From Gemmatimonadales bacterium (GTDB taxonomy: Bacteria > Gemmatimonadota > Gemmatimonadetes > Gemmatimonadales > GWC2-71-9), in NCBI GenBank assembly GCA_036443495.1, contig JAZFYL010000025.1, forward strand, positions 1-47,451: DNA of 47,451 nt, written 5' to 3'. Positions 9,914-41,026 of the stretch are shown in pieces. The notes below the pieces were generated by a model. It ran no database searches, was not told where the DNA came from, and saw only the letters and a program-made list of their open reading frames with translations. Position numbers and translations under genes: made by a program. Each line of letters begins with the position of its first letter. Within the stretch, counting starts at the first letter, position 1.

Positions 9914-10492
9914 CTACCCAGAACTCGCACGGTGGTCCGCCAGCTCGGTCAGGATCATGTGGACCGGTATGTCGCGTGCCGTCATTGGGACCCGGTCCAC
10001 AATCTGGGACTCGAAGGCCAATCCGAGGAAGGTAGAGTTGGGGCCCGCGTTACCCAGCAGCGAGTCGTAATAACCGCGGCCGTAGCCGATCCTCCCGCCT
10101 CGCAGGTCGAAGGCCAGCCCCGGTACCAGAAAGAGATCCACCGCCCCTGGGGAGCATTGGCGCGCCGGATCCAGCCGGAGATCCTGCCTGGGCTCCCAAA
10201 GATCGAATGAGCCAAGCTCCAGCTCGTCGAGTGAGCGAATCAGGCATATCCCCAAGGTCGGACCGTCCCGGTACACGACGGCGGTTGGCGCCTGGCGGGC
10301 GAGCCGGCCCTCGAGGAGCCCACGGGTCTCCACTTCGGACCCGATCCCCACATAGCTGGCCACGACAGGTGCCACCCGATACTCCTGCAGGCCTTCCACG
10401 CGGCGCTGGATGGCCAAACTCTTGGCGGGTCGGCCCGGCTCGCGCTCACGTCGGTCGCGGGCTTCCTCACGTAGCCTCTGCTTTGCATCCAT
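9914..10492 (-). CDS. 5-formyltetrahydrofolate cyclo-ligase (MTHFS)
   Basis: VPGLAFDLRGGRIGYGRGYYDSLL is the signature C-terminal motif of the family. Start placed at MDAKQRLREE (the ORF extends to 10552). Confidence 0.85.
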   Translation of the reverse strand: MDAKQRLREEARDRREREPGRPAKSLAIQRRVEGLQEYRVAPVVASYVGIGSEVETRGLLEGRLARQAPTAVVYRDGPTLGICLIRSLDELELGSFDLWEPRQDLRLDPARQCSPGAVDLFLVPGLAFDLRGGRIGYGRGYYDSLLGNAGPNSTFLGLAFESQIVDRVPMTARDIPVHMILTELADHRASSG

Positions 10493-10635
10493 GGACGCAA
10501 TATGATCCAACCTGCCCGGAGCAGCGACCGTTTGCGGGCCCCGATCCTCCACTACCGCCCTCCCAGCCGCGACCGTACCTTTCCGCCATGGGCCACCACG
10601 GGGCCCATTGCTTTCTCACGTGAAGGACAAGAAGT

Positions 10636-11196
10636 GTGAACGGGACATTTCAGGTTACCGTCAGTAAAGACTATCTCGCATTCTCCGCGGCACATTTCAT
10701 CACGTTTCGGGGTCACAAGTGCGAGTCTCTGCACGGCCACAACTACCGGGTTGGTGTCACGGTAACTGGCCAGGTAGATCCCGAATGCCAGTTCGTCCTC
10801 GACTTCGCCATTCTAAAACAAATCCTCAAGCCGATGGTCGATACTATCGACCACAAGGTGTTGCTTCCTGCCAAGAGCACCAAGCTGGAGATCGAAGAGT
10901 CGGACGACGGCCTCACGGTTATCTACCTCGGTGCACCGCGTTTCCGCTTTCCGACATCGGATTGTGCGCTCTTGCCGATATCGAACACCACTGCTGAAAT
11001 GTTAGCTGAGTACTTCGCGATCCAAGTTCAAGGCGAGTTGGCACACCGGGGCTTCCATCATCTGGACTGGTTGGCCATCGAAGTTGAAGAGAGCCCCGGG
11101 CAGACCGCCACCTACCGCGCCGCTCTCGCGCCTGGCAACCGGGACCACGAAGAGACCCTTTCGTATTCGTCAGCATCGAGTCCGCACCACGCCTGA
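10636..11196 (+). CDS. COG0720 6-pyruvoyl-tetrahydropterin synthase / QueD family protein
   Basis: FSAAHFI...CESLHGHNYRV (Cys-x3-HGH zinc/active-site motif) and LDFAILK. GTG start. The subfamily (PTPS-I/QueD versus PTPS-III) is not resolvable by eye. Confidence 0.85.
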   Translation: MNGTFQVTVSKDYLAFSAAHFITFRGHKCESLHGHNYRVGVTVTGQVDPECQFVLDFAILKQILKPMVDTIDHKVLLPAKSTKLEIEESDDGLTVIYLGAPRFRFPTSDCALLPISNTTAEMLAEYFAIQVQGELAHRGFHHLDWLAIEVEESPGQTATYRAALAPGNRDHEETLSYSSASSPHHA

Positions 11197-11219
11197 CTGC
11201 GCGGAGGAGGACGGATAAC

Positions 11220-11570
11220 ATGGCTATTCCCGACATTCATACTGCTGAGACGATCGCCGGTCCGCTTGCCGAGCTTCCAGGATGGGCCTTCGGCGACAAC
11301 CTGATCTACCGTGAGTTTCAAACCGACGGATGGCCCACGACCCTGATGGTGGTCAACGCCATCGGATTCGTATGCGAGGCTGCCGACCATCATCCCGACC
11401 TCATGGTAACCTGGGGCAAAGTCGTGGTGAGCCTCAGCAGCCACCGGGCCGGTGGGGTCACGGACTTCGACCTGGCAATGGCACGTCACATAGACGAGGT
11501 GGTTCTGTGGAGGCCGGGGGCCGATTCGCCGCTGCAGGGTACTTCCCGTCCGTTCGTCCAGGGAGGCTGA
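11220..11570 (+). CDS. phhB: pterin-4-alpha-carbinolamine dehydratase
   Basis: 116 aa with LPGW, the EAADHHPDL motif and the typical PCD length. Confidence 0.88.
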   Translation: MAIPDIHTAETIAGPLAELPGWAFGDNLIYREFQTDGWPTTLMVVNAIGFVCEAADHHPDLMVTWGKVVVSLSSHRAGGVTDFDLAMARHIDEVVLWRPGADSPLQGTSRPFVQGG

Positions 11571-13063
11571 GGATCGACGGTCTTCCCCACATTGAAGCTC
11601 TTGCCCTGGAACTCGACCCGGTGCAGTGCGCGGCCCTGGTCTTGGATCTTCCCTACCCTCTTCTTCTCGACAGCAGTTCGCACGACCCGAATCTGGCCCG
11701 CTTTTCCTTCGTAGCGGCCGATCCGGCCGTCGTGATTCGGGGCCAGGGCCGGGACACCGCCGTCTGCCACCGTCACAAAGGATCGACTTGGCACCCCGTG
11801 CCCGGTGACGCACTTGCCGTCTGCCGCGATGTCATGGCCCCATTCGCCACCGATCCCGTTTCGTTCCTTCCCCCGTTTCAGGGAGGGATGGCGGGTTATC
11901 TCGGCTACGAGTTCGCTAGGGTGCTCGACCGTGTACCGCCTCCCCGGGTCCGGGACCTACCCCTGGCCGATGCGCTCTTGTGTCTCTACGACTGGGTGAT
12001 CGCTTGGGACCATCAAACCGGCGAGGCATGGATCATCTCGACCGGCATCCCGGCCACGGGTCATGAACGAGCCGAACGTGCGCGAGAGCGCCTGCGATCC
12101 ATCCGTAAGCGGCTGACTGATCAGTCGCCGGCCCGAATGAGCGGCGGGTCGGTGCCCATGACCTCGGGGGTGGCAAAGCCGCTCGTGGTCCCCCCCCCAT
12201 CCCCTGAGGGGCCACCGTTACGTTCGACATTCACTGCTGCCGACTACCGTAACGCGGTAGCCCAGGTACGGGAGTTCATCCTTGCCGGAGACATCTTCCA
12301 GGCCAACTTGTCGCAGCGTTTCGATGCCCCGCTCCCGCTCCCACCGTTCGACACATACCGTGAGCTGCGGGCTAACAACCCGGCACCGTTCGGCGCGTTC
12401 TTCCAGACCGGAGAAGCCGCCGTATTGAGCATCTCCCCCGAGCGGTTCCTCAGCTTGGATCCCAGGGAGGGTCGAGTGGAGACCCGGCCAATCAAGGGAA
12501 CCAGGCCGCGCGGCAGCGAGCCCGGCATCGATGAACGCCTGGCGCAGGAGCTTCTGGTAAGCGAAAAGGATCGGGCGGAAAACGTGATGATCGTCGATTT
12601 GTTGCGTAACGATCTCTCACGAGTGTGCCGGGCGGGAACGATAACGGTGTCGGAGCTTTGTTCCCTCGAGCGTCATCCTACGGTCCACCATCTCGTTTCC
12701 ACCATCATCGGTAGACTCACTCCGGGGGAGGACGCCTTCACCTTGCTCCGGGCGGCCTTCCCCGGGGGCTCGATTACGGGGGCCCCCAAGATAAGAGCCA
12801 TGGAGATCATCGCCGCCCTCGAACCAACGGCCCGCCATGTGTATTGCGGATCGATTGGTTACATCAGCCTGACCGGGGCGATGGACACCAGTATCGCCAT
12901 TCGAACGGCGGTGGCCGCCCGCGGGCGTCTGTACTTCAGTGCCGGAGGCGGGATCGTCGCCGATTCAGATCCGGAAGCGGAGTACCGCGAGACGCTCGAC
13001 AAGGCCCATGCCTTTCTCCATCTGCTCAAGGCGGAGAGCATTTCCAACATGGCGCCCTCATGA
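11507..13063 (+). CDS. pabB: aminodeoxychorismate (or anthranilate) synthase component I
   Basis: Chorismate-binding motifs (GDIFQANLSQRF, PAPFGAFF, SPERFL, RPIKGTRPRG, EKDRAENVMIVDL, FPGGSITGAPK, GGGIVADSDPEAEY). The start is uncertain. GTG 11507 follows GAGGTGG, and the ATG at 11330 would overlap phhB by 240 nt. Confidence 0.85.
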   Translation: MEAGGRFAAAGYFPSVRPGRLRIDGLPHIEALALELDPVQCAALVLDLPYPLLLDSSSHDPNLARFSFVAADPAVVIRGQGRDTAVCHRHKGSTWHPVPGDALAVCRDVMAPFATDPVSFLPPFQGGMAGYLGYEFARVLDRVPPPRVRDLPLADALLCLYDWVIAWDHQTGEAWIISTGIPATGHERAERARERLRSIRKRLTDQSPARMSGGSVPMTSGVAKPLVVPPPSPEGPPLRSTFTAADYRNAVAQVREFILAGDIFQANLSQRFDAPLPLPPFDTYRELRANNPAPFGAFFQTGEAAVLSISPERFLSLDPREGRVETRPIKGTRPRGSEPGIDERLAQELLVSEKDRAENVMIVDLLRNDLSRVCRAGTITVSELCSLERHPTVHHLVSTIIGRLTPGEDAFTLLRAAFPGGSITGAPKIRAMEIIAALEPTARHVYCGSIGYISLTGAMDTSIAIRTAVAARGRLYFSAGGGIVADSDPEAEYRETLDKAHAFLHLLKAESISNMAPS

Positions 13064-13674
13064 TCCTGTTGATCGACAACTACGATTCATTCGTCTACAA
13101 CCTCGCCCGGTACGTTACGGACCTGGGCGAGTCGGCAATGGTGTACCGTCACGATGCCATCACGGTGAGCGACATCGAAGGGATGGCGCCGAGCCACGTC
13201 ATCATCTCACCCGGCCCGGGTACCCCGGCCGAAGCCGGCGTATCCGTCGAGGTCGTGCAGCAGTTGGGCCCTCGGATTCCCGTTCTGGGCGTCTGTCTGG
13301 GCCACCAATGCATTGGGGCCGCATACGGGGCGCGCATCGTGCGAGCCCGCCATCCCATGCACGGGAAGTCGTCGCATATCGATCATCAGGGCAGCGGGCT
13401 GTTCGAGGGTCTGCCTAACCCCCTGGTAGCGGCGCGGTATCATTCCCTCGTCATCGATCCTGAGACGGTTCCGGGTGATCTGGAAGTGGTGGCCACGTCC
13501 GACGACGGAGAGATCATGGCAGTCCGGCACCGGGATCATCCCGTTTGGGGCGTGCAGTTTCACCCGGAGTCGGTCCTGACCCAGTGGGGCTACCATATGC
13601 TCCACCGGTTCCTCCGGCCCGATCGGGGCGTGCCCCGGGACGTGCCGAGTGAGGCGGATTGGGTTACGAGTTGA
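13060..13674 (+). CDS. pabA: glutamine amidotransferase component II of ADC/anthranilate synthase
   Basis: MILLIDNYDSFVYNLARY..., GVCLGHQ (catalytic Cys), VQFHPES. ATGA overlap with the pabB stop. Confidence 0.9.
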   Translation: MILLIDNYDSFVYNLARYVTDLGESAMVYRHDAITVSDIEGMAPSHVIISPGPGTPAEAGVSVEVVQQLGPRIPVLGVCLGHQCIGAAYGARIVRARHPMHGKSSHIDHQGSGLFEGLPNPLVAARYHSLVIDPETVPGDLEVVATSDDGEIMAVRHRDHPVWGVQFHPESVLTQWGYHMLHRFLRPDRGVPRDVPSEADWVTS

Positions 13675-13731: not shown

Positions 13732-14811
13732 TCAATCGCCCAGACTGACGCCTAGCTGACGGGCTGTGATGACGGTGTCGGAGTCGAGGGAGACAAGCTT
13801 TGGCTGACCGACGACATTGGCCAGCGGCACAAGCCCGATATCGGGTGGGTTGTAACACACCATGGTCCCGAACGCCCTGTCAGCCAGCGCACGAACGGCT
13901 GCGGTGCCGAACAGAAGGCCGAGCAATCGATCGGAACTGGTGGGGGCGCCGCCCCGTTGCAAGTGCCCAAGAACCAGGCAGCGGGTCTCCTTGCCGGTGA
14001 TCTTGGCGATGGCGTCGGCCACTTCGCTGCCGATTCCACCGAGACGAGTCGCGCCGCCAACTCGCTGGCCCTCCGCAATGACCTGTTCGCCGGCAACGGG
14101 CCGAGCACCTTCGGCGACCACCACGATGCTATAGCGCAAGCCCCGACCCTCACGTTCAGTGATCTTGTCGCACACCTTCTGAATGTCGAACGGGATTTCC
14201 GGAATGAGGATCACGTCGGCGGTGGCGGCCACCCCGGCATACAGCGCAATCCACCCGGTGTCTCGCCCCATGAGTTCGACAACCATGACGCGATCATGTG
14301 CCTCGGCCGTGGGGTGGAGTTTGTCGATCGCCTCGGTGGCCGTCGTCAAGGCCGTATCGAACCCGAAGGTCCGCACCGTCCCGGCGACATCATTGTCGAT
14401 CGTCTTGGGTACACCGACGATCGGCAACCCTTTTTGAGATAATTGATAGGCGATATGCAGGCTCCCGTCGCCGCCAATGGCCACGAGCGCCTCAAACCCT
14501 CGTTCCCGAAACCGGGCCAGGAGTTCGTCCGACCGGTCTACTTCGGTTTCCACTCCCTGGGCATCTTTTTCGACCCATCGGAACGGATTCCCCCGGTTGG
14601 TCGTTCCCAGGATCGTCCCGCCCAGGTGGGTGATCCCCCGCACCTCATCGGGTCCCAACCGGATCACCCCTTCGCCGGTCATGAGCCCCTGGTAGCCGCG
14701 ACGGATCCCGTAGCATTCCCAACCCAGGTTGTGCGCGGCGAGAACGACGGCTCGGATGACGGCGTTGAGCCCGGGGGCATCACCCCCACCGGTCGAGATC
14801 GCGATACGCAC
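13732..14811 (-). CDS. pfkA: 6-phosphofructokinase
   Basis: GGDAPGLNA, IGGDGS, PKTIDNDV, MGR, GHLQRGG motifs. GTG start 18 nt downstream of the SelW-like stop. Confidence 0.9.
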   Translation of the reverse strand: MRIAISTGGGDAPGLNAVIRAVVLAAHNLGWECYGIRRGYQGLMTGEGVIRLGPDEVRGITHLGGTILGTTNRGNPFRWVEKDAQGVETEVDRSDELLARFRERGFEALVAIGGDGSLHIAYQLSQKGLPIVGVPKTIDNDVAGTVRTFGFDTALTTATEAIDKLHPTAEAHDRVMVVELMGRDTGWIALYAGVAATADVILIPEIPFDIQKVCDKITEREGRGLRYSIVVVAEGARPVAGEQVIAEGQRVGGATRLGGIGSEVADAIAKITGKETRCLVLGHLQRGGAPTSSDRLLGLLFGTAAVRALADRAFGTMVCYNPPDIGLVPLANVVGQPKLVSLDSDTVITARQLGVSLGD

Positions 14812-14829
14812 GCTATTGCCGGTCCTTCC

Positions 14830-15060
14830 TCAACCGAGCTCGGCCCGCACCAAGTCCAGGACTTCGCCAGGGTTGGCGTGACGTCCAACCGACTTCTTGG
14901 AGAAGACAAGCTTCCCGTCGACCTCGACCTCGAACGCTCCGCCGGATGATTCCAGGAGCTGGACGTCGCATTTGGAAAAGGCCTGTTTCAACTCCGCCGC
15001 CAAACTGGCGGCGCGCGGTTGGTAGTTTCAAACGACGCAGTATTCGATGCTGATCTTCAT
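14830..15060 (-). CDS. SelW/Rdx-family thioredoxin-like selenoprotein with in-frame UGA (Sec) at codon 11
   Basis: ATG at 15058..15060 reads MKISIEYCVV-TGA(15028..15030)-NYQPRAASLAAELKQAFSKCDVQLLESSGGAFEVEVDGKLVFSKKSVGRHANPGEVLDLVRAELG, with stop at 14830..14832. It has a CxxU redox motif and GGAFEV, typical of the Rdx/SelW family. A hairpin lies 6 nt after the UGA. Confidence 0.8.
14989..15021 (-). promoter_or_regulatory. candidate bacterial SECIS hairpin
   Basis: mRNA sense CAAC-CGCG-CGCCGCC-AGUUU-GGCGGCG-GA-GUUG. It has a 7-bp perfect upper stem, a 5-nt GU-containing loop, an internal loop and a 4-bp lower stem, and starts 6 nt after the UGA. Confidence 0.65.
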
Positions 15061-15061
15061 A

Positions 15062-15089
15062 GGTGCGCGGTGCGCGGTGCGCGGTGGGC
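15062..15089. repeat. tandem heptamer (GGTGCGC)x3 plus GGTGGGC abutting the SelW-like start codon
   Basis: Read directly. On the mRNA strand it is GCCCACC GCGCACC GCGCACC GCGCACC U AUG, with no Shine-Dalgarno sequence. Confidence 0.85.
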
Positions 15090-15344
15090 AGGCCACCGGC
15101 CCGGCGCTGGGCTGAGGTTGGGCGTGCGGCGGTTCTCTCGAGACCGTGACGAACCAAGTCCTGCAGGGGAATCGTACCTCCGTCCAGAAAAGATGCCAAG
15201 GGTCCAGAGGCTGTCTTGCAGTCCGCCTCCCCACAAGGCAACCTGAGAGGGTGACCCGGGTGTTTCGGGTTGGGGCGGGCACGACCGGACGCTAGATTGG
15301 GAGACCTTGACCAGGGCACGGCGCTTGCCGGATCGACAGGTATT

Positions 15345-23555: not shown

Positions 23556-24104
23556 TCAAGAAGTCTGGTCTCGCGACTCCTCTTCCAGTTCGATGCCAAG
23601 CCCGTCAGCGATCCGGTTCACGAATGCGAAGTAGGCGGTCACGGTAGCGAGGTCATGAATGGCCACATCGTCAAACCCGTTCTGCCGCAACCGATCAACG
23701 TCATGGGCCGTCATGGCGCCGGGATCCTCGGTGAGCTTGAGGGCGTAGTCGAGTAACGCTCGGTCGGCCGGCGGCAGGGACATTTTCCGATAGTCGTCAA
23801 CCAACCCTCGTACGAAACCCGCCGCATCGAGGTCTTCTTCTTCCCGCTCCAGAATGCCACGGAGGCCCGCTCCGTGATGCGCCGTTCAGTAGCGGCATCC
23901 GTTGACGGCCGACACCACCACCGCCACCATCTCCCGCTGCCTCCGCGACAGTGGACTTGGTCGCCGCATGACCTCTATGTAGAGGTCGTAGTGCCGTCGC
24001 ATGACACGGGGATGCACCCCGTGAATCCGGATGATGTTGTCACGATCCTTCACCCGGTCTCGCTCGGGAATGTCCAATTCTGGAACGTACGGGATATAGG
24101 CCAT
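23556..24104 (-). CDS. AhpD/carboxymuconolactone-decarboxylase-family peroxidase-related enzyme, selenoprotein with in-frame UGA at codon 73
   Basis: ORFs 23886..24104 and 23556..23804 are in the same frame, and TGA 23886..23888 is the only stop between them. The joined protein reads ...VVSAVNGCRY-U-TAHHGAGLRGIL...LLDYALKLTEDPGAMTAHDVDRLRQNGFDDVAIHDLATVTAYFAFVNRIADGLG. This is the family motif N-x-C-x-Y-C-x-x-H-H with the second Cys replaced by UGA. Confidence 0.8.
23858..23876 (-). promoter_or_regulatory. candidate bacterial SECIS hairpin
   Basis: mRNA sense CACGGAG-CGGGC-CUCCGUG, a 7-bp perfect stem with a G-rich 5-nt loop, beginning 9 nt after the UGA. Confidence 0.6.
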
Positions 24105-25418: not shown

Positions 25419-26108
25419 ATGCCCAAGGTGGATCTCACTCCATTCGGTTTCACGCCGACCGAAAGCCTCGTGTACCATGTGCTGTTGGCGCACGGCCCCG
25501 GGACGGGCTACGCCATCGCTCGCGCCGCTCGCCTAGCCAGGGCCAACGCCTACGGCGCCCTGGAGGGCCTCAGGTCGAAAGGCGCCGCCAACGCCGATGA
25601 GGGACGGCCAAGGCGATACCGTCCCGAGCCTCCTCCCGTTCTTCTCGCCCGGATCGCTAGTCGCCAGAACAAAGCAATCGATAGCCTCGCGGCGGCGCTC
25701 GAAGATCTTTCCGCCCCGCATTCGCCCAGTTTGGTGGAGATCGATTCGGTCCGGGCGGCGCTGCGACTGATCAGCCACGACATAGCCAGGGCGGAGCATT
25801 CTGTTGAGCTGGTTGCCCCATCCGATGCATTTCCTCTGTTGACGCCAGTCTTGCGTCGGGCGGCCAGTGCGGAGTTGGCGATGCATTTGAGATCCGTAGG
25901 ACGTGTTGAAGGCTCGCCGTTCACCGCGCTCGAACCGATTGCAGGCGGTTATCGGTGGCCGGGCATGCCGCTCATATCCGTGGTGGATGATCGAACGGCC
26001 GTCATCGCTGCCCGCCAGGGTAACGATGTGCGAGGTCACTGGTGCCAAGCGCTGGCTTTTGTAGCCGCCGCACGACTCAGCATCGAACGTTTAGGAACAC
26101 AATCATGA
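25419..26108 (+). CDS. TrmB-family transcriptional regulator
   Basis: N-terminal winged HTH LTPFGFTPTESLVYHVLLAHGPGTGYAIARAARLARANAYGALEGLRSKG matches TrmB_N. Its stop overlaps the next ATG (ATGA). Confidence 0.75.
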   Translation: MPKVDLTPFGFTPTESLVYHVLLAHGPGTGYAIARAARLARANAYGALEGLRSKGAANADEGRPRRYRPEPPPVLLARIASRQNKAIDSLAAALEDLSAPHSPSLVEIDSVRAALRLISHDIARAEHSVELVAPSDAFPLLTPVLRRAASAELAMHLRSVGRVEGSPFTALEPIAGGYRWPGMPLISVVDDRTAVIAARQGNDVRGHWCQALAFVAAARLSIERLGTQS

Positions 26109-27772
26109 GCGATGTAGCGAACGACGAACTCAGCGTGGCGTTTCTGAGACTGCAGCGGGAATACATTGCCGAGTTTCCGGCGCGGCTCGCGGAACTGCGG
26201 AAGGATATCGCGGCCCTGGGTGCGGGCGAGCCGGACGCCGCCGTATCCATCAAGAGACGGCTTCACAAGCTGGCTGGTTCAGGAGGGTCGTACGGATTTC
26301 CGGAGCTGAGCCGTGAGGCACGCGATGCGGAGCAGTGGCTAGGCCAACCCGACGCGGGCCCCGATACTGTGGAACGTTTGGATCAGACCGTCGCCAAGCT
26401 GGCCGAGTTGATGGACGAGGCTCCCACGCCAGAGATGCCGGAGGATCAAGGCCGGCCGCTGGATTTTGGATGGCAAGCGCACATCATTGGCCGTGAGCAC
26501 GGGTTGATGGCCGCCTTGACGGAGACCCTGACGGCGGCGGGATTCAAGGTAACATCCGGTTCGGAATCGAACCAAGCCAACACCATCCCCATCTCGGCCC
26601 GACCCGACCTCTTGGTCATCGTCGGCAAGGCCAAGGACTTCGATACTCATGCAACGGCTGCAGCCTGGACCAGCGTACGATCCATCCGTCCTCGGGGCGT
26701 GGTGCTCATCGACACCGGGGACAGTTCTGACCGGTTTGGAGCGGTCGCGGCAGGGGTCGATGCGATCTTCCAACCGGGCCAGATCAACACGGACTTCCCC
26801 CAGTACGCCAAGACCTTGGCCCGCATCGGCGTTCCCCCTTCGAGCGTACTGTTGGTGGAGGACGACCTCGCGCAAGCGCAGTTGGTCGCGTCGGCCCTGG
26901 AGGCATCCAACATCAGGGTCAATCATGCGGAAGATGCGGCACGAGCCCAGGAACTCCTGGCACAAGAGGTTCCCGACCTCATCCTGCTCGACATCGGGCT
27001 ACCCGACATGGACGGGATCACGCTGGCCCGCCTGATCAGGCAGGACCCGCGGTACAGCCTGCTACCGATCGTCTTCCTGACAGCGCGGGCGTCGATGGCG
27101 AGTCATGTCGAAGCGCTGCGGGCCGGCGGGGACGACTTCCTCACCAAACCGATAGACCAGAGCCTCAACCTGTTGCTGCAGGTAGTCATCACCCGGGCCG
27201 AGCGCGGACGTCGCATCCGCGAGATGGTCCACAAGGATGGCCTCACGGGGCTGCTCAACCACGCGACTTTGATGACGGAGTTGGAGAACGCAGTGGAGTA
27301 CGCCAATCGCGGTATCGAATCGTTCACCTTCTTGATGATCGACATCGACCATTTCAAGCGCGTGAACGATCGATACGGACACCTGGTGGGGGATCAGGTC
27401 TTGCTCCACGTCGCCCGGATCTTCCAGAGCACGGCGAGGTCGAGCGATGTGATCGGGCGGTATGGCGGCGAGGAATTCGGGATAATCCTGCGACGCAGCA
27501 ATCAGATCGGGGCTGCCACCGTAGCCGAGAAGCTCCGAACCGCCCTGCGAGAACGGCCGGCCACCACGGAAGACGGCGAACCGATCCCCGTGCAGGTCAG
27601 CATTGGAATCGCCAGCTATCCGGAGGACGGCGCTTCCGCGTCGGTCTTGGCGCATGCTGCGGATCTTGCATTGTATCGGGCGAAGTCTCGTGGGCGGGAT
27701 CGGGTGGAATTGGCCGACCCCGAGGGAGTCGCTGCTACGACTCCCGAGGAGACGCCCGGCGGCGAGGCCTGA
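26105..27772 (+). CDS. HPt - degenerate receiver - REC - GGDEF diguanylate cyclase response regulator
   Basis: HPt (RRLHKLAGSGGSYGF). REC (VLLVEDD...DLILLDIGLPDMDG...LTKP). GGDEF with a GGEEF active site and an RSSD I-site five residues upstream. Confidence 0.88.
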   Translation: MSDVANDELSVAFLRLQREYIAEFPARLAELRKDIAALGAGEPDAAVSIKRRLHKLAGSGGSYGFPELSREARDAEQWLGQPDAGPDTVERLDQTVAKLAELMDEAPTPEMPEDQGRPLDFGWQAHIIGREHGLMAALTETLTAAGFKVTSGSESNQANTIPISARPDLLVIVGKAKDFDTHATAAAWTSVRSIRPRGVVLIDTGDSSDRFGAVAAGVDAIFQPGQINTDFPQYAKTLARIGVPPSSVLLVEDDLAQAQLVASALEASNIRVNHAEDAARAQELLAQEVPDLILLDIGLPDMDGITLARLIRQDPRYSLLPIVFLTARASMASHVEALRAGGDDFLTKPIDQSLNLLLQVVITRAERGRRIREMVHKDGLTGLLNHATLMTELENAVEYANRGIESFTFLMIDIDHFKRVNDRYGHLVGDQVLLHVARIFQSTARSSDVIGRYGGEEFGIILRRSNQIGAATVAEKLRTALRERPATTEDGEPIPVQVSIGIASYPEDGASASVLAHAADLALYRAKSRGRDRVELADPEGVAATTPEETPGGEA

Positions 27773-40339: not shown

Positions 40340-40551
40340 GCTAATGGGCACAAGAGAGGGGGCCAGAGCCCCCCAGTAAGAACAACGGACATACGATCCG
40401 CCCGATAAGAGCACACCCGGAGCGATCCGGGGCCGCAAAACCAGAGGTCTCGACCAATCGAGATAGCTCGGTGCCGAAGGTGGAACCAGCAATGCGGAGC
40501 GTAATGCCTGAGCCAGTGCCCCTGAGGGGCCTGTGCGCATTACGCTTTTTT
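40340..40551 (+). ncRNA. candidate structured RNA: sRNA or cis-regulatory leader of unknown class
   Basis: Non-coding 438-bp gap. Perfect hairpins at 40358..40373 (GGGGGC-CAGA-GCCCCC), 40416..40431 (CCCGGA-GCGA-TCCGGG, GNRA loop) and 40448..40463 (TCTCGA-CCAA-TCGAGA), ending in a strong terminator. Confidence 0.4.
40499..40551 (+). terminator. intrinsic terminator
   Basis: Outer stem GCGTAATGC/GCATTACGC encloses an inner stem GCCCC-TGA-GGGGC and is followed by TTTTTT. It ends 26 nt before the next ATG. Confidence 0.75.
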
Positions 40552-40576
40552 GTGTTTATCGGGCGTGGGAGAGAGC

Positions 40577-41026
40577 ATGACTTCCACGCAAGCGCAGTTC
40601 TCCAAGACCTTCGGGTCACGTCTAGCCGGCATCGCCCTGATGGCACTGGGTTGTGCGCCGGCGGCCTTGAGTCCCAGTTCCCTACCTGACGGTGCCGTTT
40701 CGTTCACGGCACCCTCGGAGTACCGGGTGTGGTGGGCCAGCACCGAGTCGTGCTCCGGTCGGACCGGTGACTTCGACCGGATTGCCTGGTACGCCGTCCC
40801 GGGGGCCAGCACCATGGAGACGGAGATCGGCGAGAAAGTTGGAATCTGGGCCAGCCATGACGGCCAGAGCACCATCACAATCGCCGGCGAGTACCTCGAC
40901 AACGAATTGGTCATCCGGCACGAGATGTTGCACGAGCTGCTGGGTCGTGACGGTCACCCCGACGAGTACTTCGTAGCTCGGTGCGGACTGACCTGGGAGA
41001 GTTGGCAGCTGGCCAGTAGCGAGTAG
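40577..41026 (+). CDS. small lipoprotein with HExxH zinc-metallopeptidase-like motif
   Basis: GGGAGAGAG precedes the ATG. Lipobox LMALGC. Contains IRHEMLHELLG. About 149 aa. Confidence 0.65.
   Translation: MTSTQAQFSKTFGSRLAGIALMALGCAPAALSPSSLPDGAVSFTAPSEYRVWWASTESCSGRTGDFDRIAWYAVPGASTMETEIGEKVGIWASHDGQSTITIAGEYLDNELVIRHEMLHELLGRDGHPDEYFVARCGLTWESWQLASSE

Follow-up and report, generated by a model that had tools for sequence, protein, structure and literature searches.

INTRODUCTION

SelW-like proteins with a Cys-x-x-selenocysteine (CXXU) motif made up the most abundant selenoprotein family of the Sargasso Sea data set, with 48 genes reported in 2005 (Zhang, Fomenko and Gladyshev; PMC1088965), and a list from 2006 gave 10 SelW-like selenoproteins for sequenced bacterial genomes (Zhang et al.; PMC1794560). 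The function of the bacterial members was described as unclear, and AhpD-like CXXU proteins were another selenoprotein family of the Sargasso Sea survey (PMC1088965). In the same survey the selenocysteine (Sec) insertion sequence (SECIS) was recognized as a stem-loop just past the UGA, with a small apical loop that contains G (PMC1088965). Here we analyse a stretch of 47,451 nt from a Gemmatimonadales bacterium (contig JAZFYL010000025.1), called the window below, to which all window coordinates refer. On its minus strand, at 14830..15060, lies a SelW-like gene with an in-frame UGA, which on comparative grounds, and with a probability that we put at roughly 0.9, is a genuine selenoprotein gene for a 76-residue SelW-like protein with the redox centre Cys8-x-x-Sec11.

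The predicted protein shares with the described bacterial SelW-like selenoproteins (PMC1088965, PMC1794560) the size range of ~75-85 residues, the N-terminal CxxU and the thioredoxin-like fold, and its gene shares with theirs the in-frame UGA followed by a stem-loop with G in a small apical loop. The two are also alike in that Cys homologues are few among Sec-using lineages. What distinguishes the window gene is its occurrence in Gemmatimonadota and its tight operon with pfkA, and there is no difference in kind. Among SelW-related proteins of solved structure, Atu0228 of Agrobacterium tumefaciens (2fa8), SAV_2001 of Streptomyces avermitilis (3dex), the Vibrio cholerae protein 2p0g and mouse SelW (2npb) have the same fold and the motif at the same position; the solved bacterial proteins are CxxC forms of ~100 residues with short extensions, whereas the window protein would be a minimal Sec form of 76 residues.

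For the RNA element, the SECIS of Escherichia coli fdhF was taken for comparison, and its loop was read from the E. coli genome after UGA140. Both elements are stem-loops inside the coding sequence (CDS) and directly 3′ of the UGA, and the apical motif GGUCUG of fdhF is common with the Gemmatimonadota selW consensus, in which the loop is GGUCU (AGUUU in the window). The selW loop starts 22 nt past the UGA and that of fdhF 19 nt past it, a difference of one codon; moreover, the upper stem of selW is longer (7-8 bp), fully paired and free of the bulged U.

RESULTS

An Rdx-family reading frame interrupted by UGA

Translation of the minus strand from ATG 15060..15058 gives MKISIEYCVV and then an in-frame TGA at 15030..15028 (codon 11), after which 65 sense codons follow (NYQPRAASLAAELKQAFSKCDVQLLESSGGAFEVEVDGKLVFSKKSVGRHANPGEVLDLVRAELG) before the stop TGA at 14832..14830, so that the frame has 76 codons with Sec11 included and the stop excluded. 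The start codon is conserved in relatives, and the predicted redox motif Cys8-Val-Val-Sec11 (TGC GTC GTT TGA) occupies 15028..15039 on the minus strand. In the mechanical list of open reading frames (ORFs), an 84-aa ORF with a GTG start (15028..15282, minus) ends at the in-frame TGA, and a 57-aa ORF with a TTG start (14830..15003) spans the part after it. An initial annotation of this DNA had proposed the layout, i.e. the ATG at 15058..15060, the TGA in a CxxU motif, 76 codons, the second TGA at 14830..14832 and 18 nt to pfkA, and every coordinate was reproduced here.

Protein searches were performed with the joined 76-residue sequence in which U was replaced by C. The Pfam family Rdx (PF10262) matched with 78.7 bits against a cut-off of 22.6 (E = 3.9e-22), covering positions 1-73 of the 74 in the model with residues 2-72, and the NCBIfam models NF041051, 'SelT/SelW/SelH family (seleno)protein', and TIGR02174 matched with 104.3 bits (cut-off 88) and 67.3 bits (cut-off 34.2), respectively. 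Sequence matches to SelW-related proteins in PDB included 2fa8 (2.5e-10) and mouse SelW, 2npb (1.3e-3), and CVVU was aligned with CTQC of 2fa8 and CEPC of 2ljk, codon 11 being placed at the second Cys.

The protein modelled was P0003, a metagenomic Cys homologue which is 63% identical to the window protein and whose first 21 residues are identical to it apart from C for U. Its AlphaFold2 (AF2) model has a mean confidence score (pLDDT) of 95.6 and the order β1(2-8)-CxxC-α1(14-27)-β2-β3-β4-α2, with the CxxC placed where β1 (E2-8) gives way to α1 (H14-27). In Foldseek the model retrieved 2fa8, 2ojl, 2oka, 3dex, 2obk and 2p0g at template modelling (TM) scores of 0.87-0.93 and root-mean-square deviations (rmsd) of 1.1-1.3 Å, further down MIEN1 and mouse SelW (TM 0.74), and then thioredoxins. 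From the profile matches and the model of its homologue, the gene product is a member of the Rdx/SelW-like family with a predicted thioredoxin-like fold. Both parts of the earlier protein assignment held: all three profiles were above their cut-offs, and codon 11 corresponds to Cys in the PDB and metagenomic homologues and to TGA in the loci of all 80 species described below.

The UGA is conserved within a constrained coding frame

A scan with one genome per species gave 516 relatives confirmed by tblastn, and the best 80 loci, almost all from metagenome-assembled genomes (MAGs) of Gemmatimonadota, were analysed. Together with 4 contigs near-identical to the window these make 84 related loci, and the window plus the 80 loci makes the set of 81 sequences. 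TGA was present at the Sec column in 84/84 loci (80 species) and is therefore more than chance at this position. It is preceded by M-x-[VI]-x-I-[EQ]-[YF]-C-V-V and followed by N-Y-x-P-R-A. Of the 81 sequences, 78 start with ATG and 3 with GTG.

The summed entropies at codon positions 1/2/3 were 3.5/2.9/9.1 for the ten codons before the UGA and 36.4/20.8/71.6 after it, where variation is again mostly at the third position. Thus purifying selection acts on both sides of the UGA and in one frame. At the same column the metagenomic homologues P0003, P0005, P0013, P0016 and P0017 have Cys, encoded by TGT in L087 (P0003) and L088 (P0005) and by TGC in L089, L090 and L091, the last three including P0013 and P0016.

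Among the 80 closest loci, three (L006, L056 and L064) were assigned by their MAG labels to Acidimicrobiia, Methylomirabilota and 'delta proteobacterium', and their sequences are typical of Gemmatimonadota; the odd labels probably reflect binning contamination, or possibly transfer.

A conserved hairpin follows the UGA

The minimum free energy (MFE) structure found by RNAfold for 61 nt around the hairpin, CAAC....CGCCGCCA-GUU-UGGCGGCG..GUUG, has -19.3 kcal/mol and begins 6 nt past the UGA. Its core, the putative SECIS at 14995..15013 (minus), consists of an 8-bp apical helix (15013..15006 with 15002..14995) and a GUU loop (15005..15003). The full bipartite hairpin of the MFE fold (14989..15021, minus) adds a lower helix, CAAC 15021..15018 with GUUG 14992..14989, with an internal loop between the two helices.

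The 81 sequences were aligned without gaps, the UGA standing at columns 10-12. The upper helix, formed by columns 27-34 and 38-45, was paired in 96.4% of the cells across 80 distinct sequences. Pair 30:42 was CG in 70, UG in 8 and GC in 2, and the covariation score of the whole structure was 0.181, compared with 0.097±0.007 in shuffles (0/500 as high). In a slid-register control, moving the 3′ partners by 1-3 columns reduced pairing from 87% to 14-51%. RNAalifold recovered the upper helix independently and found no alternative conserved structure. The apical loop begins 22 nt past the UGA and, with its closing A-U pair included, reads AGUUU in the window. Across the 81 sequences G35 does not vary, and U36 is conserved in >90%. 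Hence the features by which a bacterial SECIS was recognized in PMC1088965 are found here as an 8-bp helix, a loop of 3-5 nt with the invariant G35, and a distance of 22 nt from the UGA.

The lower CAAC/GUUG helix was paired in 68% across species, with some covariation (19:51 was GC in 37, GU in 14 and CG in 13), and is best treated as a weak, optional or lineage-specific extension. Of the bipartite SECIS hairpin claimed initially, the upper helix and its position were thus borne out, with covariation in its support, and the lower helix was found to be weakly conserved.

In some close relatives TGA is replaced by TGT (L087/P0003 and L088/P0005) or by AGA for Arg (L093/P0010), and the hairpin is kept with 8/8 pairs. 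Such loci appear to have switched from Sec to Cys or Arg recently, leaving a fossil SECIS behind, unless they are assembly variants. A 'remnant SECIS' in this type of situation was illustrated previously (PMC1794560, Fig. 4).

A second gene with UGA at its catalytic cysteine

An in-frame TGA scan, which sought coding-like sequence on both sides of a TGA, detected a further putative selenoprotein gene in the window. The scan missed selW itself and is thus not an exhaustive screen. The gene, AhpD-like or peroxidase-related (23556..24104, minus, 182 codons), starts at ATG 24104, has an in-frame TGA at 23888..23886 (codon 73) within C-R-Y-U-T-A-H-H, and stops at 23558..23556. The joined protein matched TIGR01926, 'peroxidase-related enzyme', with 121.9 bits against a cut-off of 81.8, and also Pfam CMD, and its UGA falls in the AhpD-type C-x-x-C-x-x-H(H) centre. 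A hairpin of 7 bp, CACGGAG-CGGGC-CUCCGUG (23876..23858, minus), was seen in the fold and is conserved in relatives; its stem starts 9 nt and its loop 16 nt past the UGA, and as a single-sequence fold it was no better than shuffles (z = -0.52). With the AhpD-like CXXU selenoproteins (COG2128 / TIGR01926) the gene shares the CxxU followed by xxH(H) and the hairpin past the UGA.

TGA was found at this column in 80/80 of the best metagenomic relatives, in which the hairpin is conserved as ACGGRG-CGGGN-CUCCGU, and in the loci L094 and L095 codon 73 is again TGA, followed by the same hairpin as in the window. Listed homologues have C or W at the UGA column, and many are fragments of 102-112 aa that start just past the UGA; public calls in relatives split the gene into ORFs of 72 aa and ~102-111 aa. 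In L094, a Gemmatimonadota locus syntenic with the window, both genes are present and both are mis-called, the AhpD-like one as 72 + 102 aa and the Rdx one as 57 aa. The occurrence of two unrelated genes, each with UGA at a catalytic Cys and each with a conserved hairpin, makes Sec decoding in this organism very likely as a prediction from sequence.

In one relative (L095, 3722..4126), a gene for MsrB (PF01641 SelR) and a radical-SAM gene were found ~2 kb from the AhpD-like selenoprotein gene, which thus has redox-repair genes in its neighbourhood.

Weighing the selenocysteine reading

Several observations weigh against the assignment of Sec to the selW-like gene. Selenium incorporation at codon 11 is a prediction, and the decoding machinery was not seen near it: ARAGORN found no tRNA gene, tRNA-Sec included, in the 47-kb window, SelA, SelB and SelD were not among its 30 ORFs searched with Pfam, and neither tblastn with the E. 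coli SelA, SelB and SelD proteins nor tRNA scans, 60 loci with ARAGORN included, detected these proteins or tRNA-Sec in 777 kb of related loci. These searches cover the window and the related loci rather than a whole genome, and are uninformative rather than negative. Literature searches, in which the ISME J 2016 survey was covered, brought up no paper on Sec in Gemmatimonadota. For the hairpin, no SECIS-type family of Rfam matched at the gathering thresholds in the whole window or at permissive ones in 14700..15300, and these scans hit only the c-di-GMP-I riboswitch described below and, by chance, a snoRNA. The window loop AGUUU, which is found in about a quarter of the species, departs from the clade consensus GGUCU. 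The single-sequence fold was no better than shuffles in this GC-rich sequence (z = -0.87), therefore the significance of the hairpin comes from the comparative data alone. Moreover, a peptide A-A-(S/G)-L-A-A is prone to encode a GC-rich palindrome, and part of the hairpin conservation is a constraint on the protein.

The last points would be expected if the gene used Sec but the hairpin were a by-product of that peptide in a GC-rich genome, with something else as the real SECIS. The helix does lie wholly within highly conserved codons, its z-score is insignificant, and the TGT and AGA variants retain it. However, the closing pair 27:45 links the third positions of an Arg and an Ala codon, at which changes on both sides are synonymous, and these partners covary. 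Their states were GC in 44, AU in 19, CG in 7-8 and UG in 1; they were paired in 72/81 sequences, whereas the maximum in shuffles was 57 and 0/20000 shuffles reached 72. At least ~22 changes of pair state are needed on a tree that was constructed by neighbour joining from the remainder of the gene. Third positions within the helix are otherwise frozen, in particular those of codons 18, 20 and 21: the third-position entropy is 0.00-0.23 in helix codons 18-21, whereas in other parts of the gene residues of equal conservation typically have 1-1.9, and the same amino acids vary freely in their codons there. In P0013 and P0016, which are divergent Cys forms, the PRAASLAA peptide is unchanged but is written in different synonymous codons (e.g. 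UCG for Ser); only 6/8 pairs remain there, the G-U loop is gone, and the folding energy is -7.5 to -9.1 instead of ~-13.6 kcal/mol. Since RNAalifold also shows no other conserved structure that could take its place, a hairpin without a role in decoding is decidedly unlikely.

A very unlikely reading is that the UGA is recoded by something other than Sec, through near-cognate Trp or Cys or through lineage reassignment of the kind seen in genetic codes 4 and 25. Pipelines do translate P0001, P0002 and P0040 with W at this column, and the Sec machinery was not observed in the window and related loci. The DNA of P0001, however, reads TGA where W is listed. TGA is the commonest stop codon of the window, ending 9/18 of its Pfam-supported genes as well as 68/81 selW genes, and it is not globally reassigned in this lineage. 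Moreover, the position is that of the catalytic Cys or Sec of the CxxC motif, at which Trp would be inactive, the conserved structure has the distance and the loop type of a bacterial SECIS, and in the AhpD-like gene, too, UGA falls on the catalytic position of a CxxC motif.

That the UGA is a true stop, and that the 57-aa ORF from TTG 15003 is functional behind 10 codons of leader or tiny upstream ORF, has even less probability. TGA is a normal stop in this genome, and gene callers and the NCBI and JGI annotations call exactly this fragment: outside the 4 near-identical public contigs, in which no gene is called between DUF4015 and PFK, the selW-like gene appears as a product of ~57 aa, which some NCBI entries list under the name 'SelT/SelW/SelH family protein', and JGI does likewise. 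The expectation that standard gene callers would omit or truncate this gene was thus confirmed in both forms. Yet the fragment is without β1 and without the CxxU/CxxC centre that defines the family, and the ATG and 10 upstream codons are conserved in frame in 80 species with third-position variation. Cys homologues run continuously through the UGA position, and the residue at the supposed restart is inconsistent (L or M), with no start codon context in some relatives.

A pseudogene, in which a Cys-type Rdx gene was hit by a nonsense mutation from TGC or TGT to TGA or by a sequencing error, could appeal to the single base that separates these codons and to the close variants with TGT (P0003, P0005) and AGA (P0010), but it is effectively refuted by TGA in 84/84 loci, from 80 species and from 4 independent assemblies of the same population, and by the purifying selection which continues downstream of the UGA.

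The selW-pfkA pair and its surroundings

Directly behind selW and on the same strand lies pfkA for 6-phosphofructokinase (13732..14811, minus, 359 aa), with a GTG start at 14811. Its product is identical to that of genes called in 4 public metagenome contigs, and Pfam PFK was assigned on this identical product. The 18-nt spacer (ggaaggaccggcaatagc, 14812..14829, minus) has a purine-rich GGAAGGA as the likely ribosome-binding site of pfkA, judged by its sequence, and no terminator-like site was found in it. In 56/80 species pfkA is directly downstream on the same strand, at gaps from -16 to +99 nt with a mode of -4, i.e. an overlap of stop and start. Cys and Arg forms (L088, L089, L090 and L093) likewise have a PFK gene behind them, as has the TGA form P0001 (L092). 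The co-transcription with pfkA that had been thought probable gains from this gene order and from the frequent 4-nt overlap.

Upstream, a consensus scan gave one candidate sigma-70-like promoter, TTGGCA-17-TACGAT (15171..15199, minus), ~110 nt upstream of the selW ATG; with 0.3 sites expected it is a weak candidate. In the 5′ leader of the window sequence no obvious Shine-Dalgarno sequence was seen. The leader has a heptamer ACCGCGC repeated three times in tandem (…CACCGCGCACCGCGCACCGCGCACCT-ATG; 15065..15085, minus), just upstream of the ATG.

A folate/pterin cluster adjoins pfkA (9914..13674), with 5-formyl-tetrahydrofolate cyclo-ligase, 6-pyruvoyl-tetrahydropterin synthase, PabB-like and PabA-like genes, and a pterin-4a-carbinolamine dehydratase was seen near pfkA in this cluster in public calls. 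Elsewhere in the window, the Rfam model RF01051 matched a c-di-GMP-I riboswitch aptamer at 40400..40478 on the plus strand with 54.1 bits, above its gathering score of 35. The aptamer lies ~70 nt upstream of a 158-aa ORF (40550..41026, plus), and a GGDEF response regulator is encoded at 26042..27772.

DISCUSSION

The family of the selW-like gene product, the fold of a close homologue, the conservation of the UGA, the coding constraint on its two sides, the constraint on the hairpin and the synteny of the operon are directly supported by the present data. By analogy with the E. coli system, the selW-like gene and pfkA would be transcribed on a bicistronic mRNA, on which translation would begin at AUG 15060. 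At the UGA (15030..15028), the stem-loop 14995..15013 within the CDS would act as a bacterial SECIS and recruit SelB-GTP-Sec-tRNA(Sec), so that Sec would be inserted instead of termination; 65 codons later the second UGA, which has no hairpin, would terminate translation. The product may then cycle between a selenol/thiol and a selenenylsulfide and reduce a thiol-based substrate. The binding of SelB, the incorporation of selenium and the substrate are what we infer in this scheme.

In view of the tight and often overlapping pair of selW and pfkA, and of the linkage in Cys forms, the SelW-like protein may be proposed as a dedicated redox partner of phosphofructokinase in Gemmatimonadota, with a selenenylsulfide/thiol switch that could tie the flux through glycolysis to the redox or selenium state of the cell. 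This proposal is unlikely; if true, it would mean that a physiological substrate is identified for a bacterial SelW-like protein for the first time.

The selW-like gene is a further member of a long-known CXXU family; it marks a gap in annotation and brings no new mechanism or family, and the conserved selW-pfkA operon is its only mildly novel aspect. Public records across at least 80 Gemmatimonadota species omit the gene or list a 57-aa fragment without the catalytic centre, and the AhpD-like gene of the window, too, is divided between two ORFs. A corrected annotation would show the use of Sec in an abundant soil phylum, and would give better estimates of the selenoproteome and of selenium demand for soil metagenomes. 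The conserved pairing with pfkA is a testable lead to the function of bacterial SelW-like proteins.

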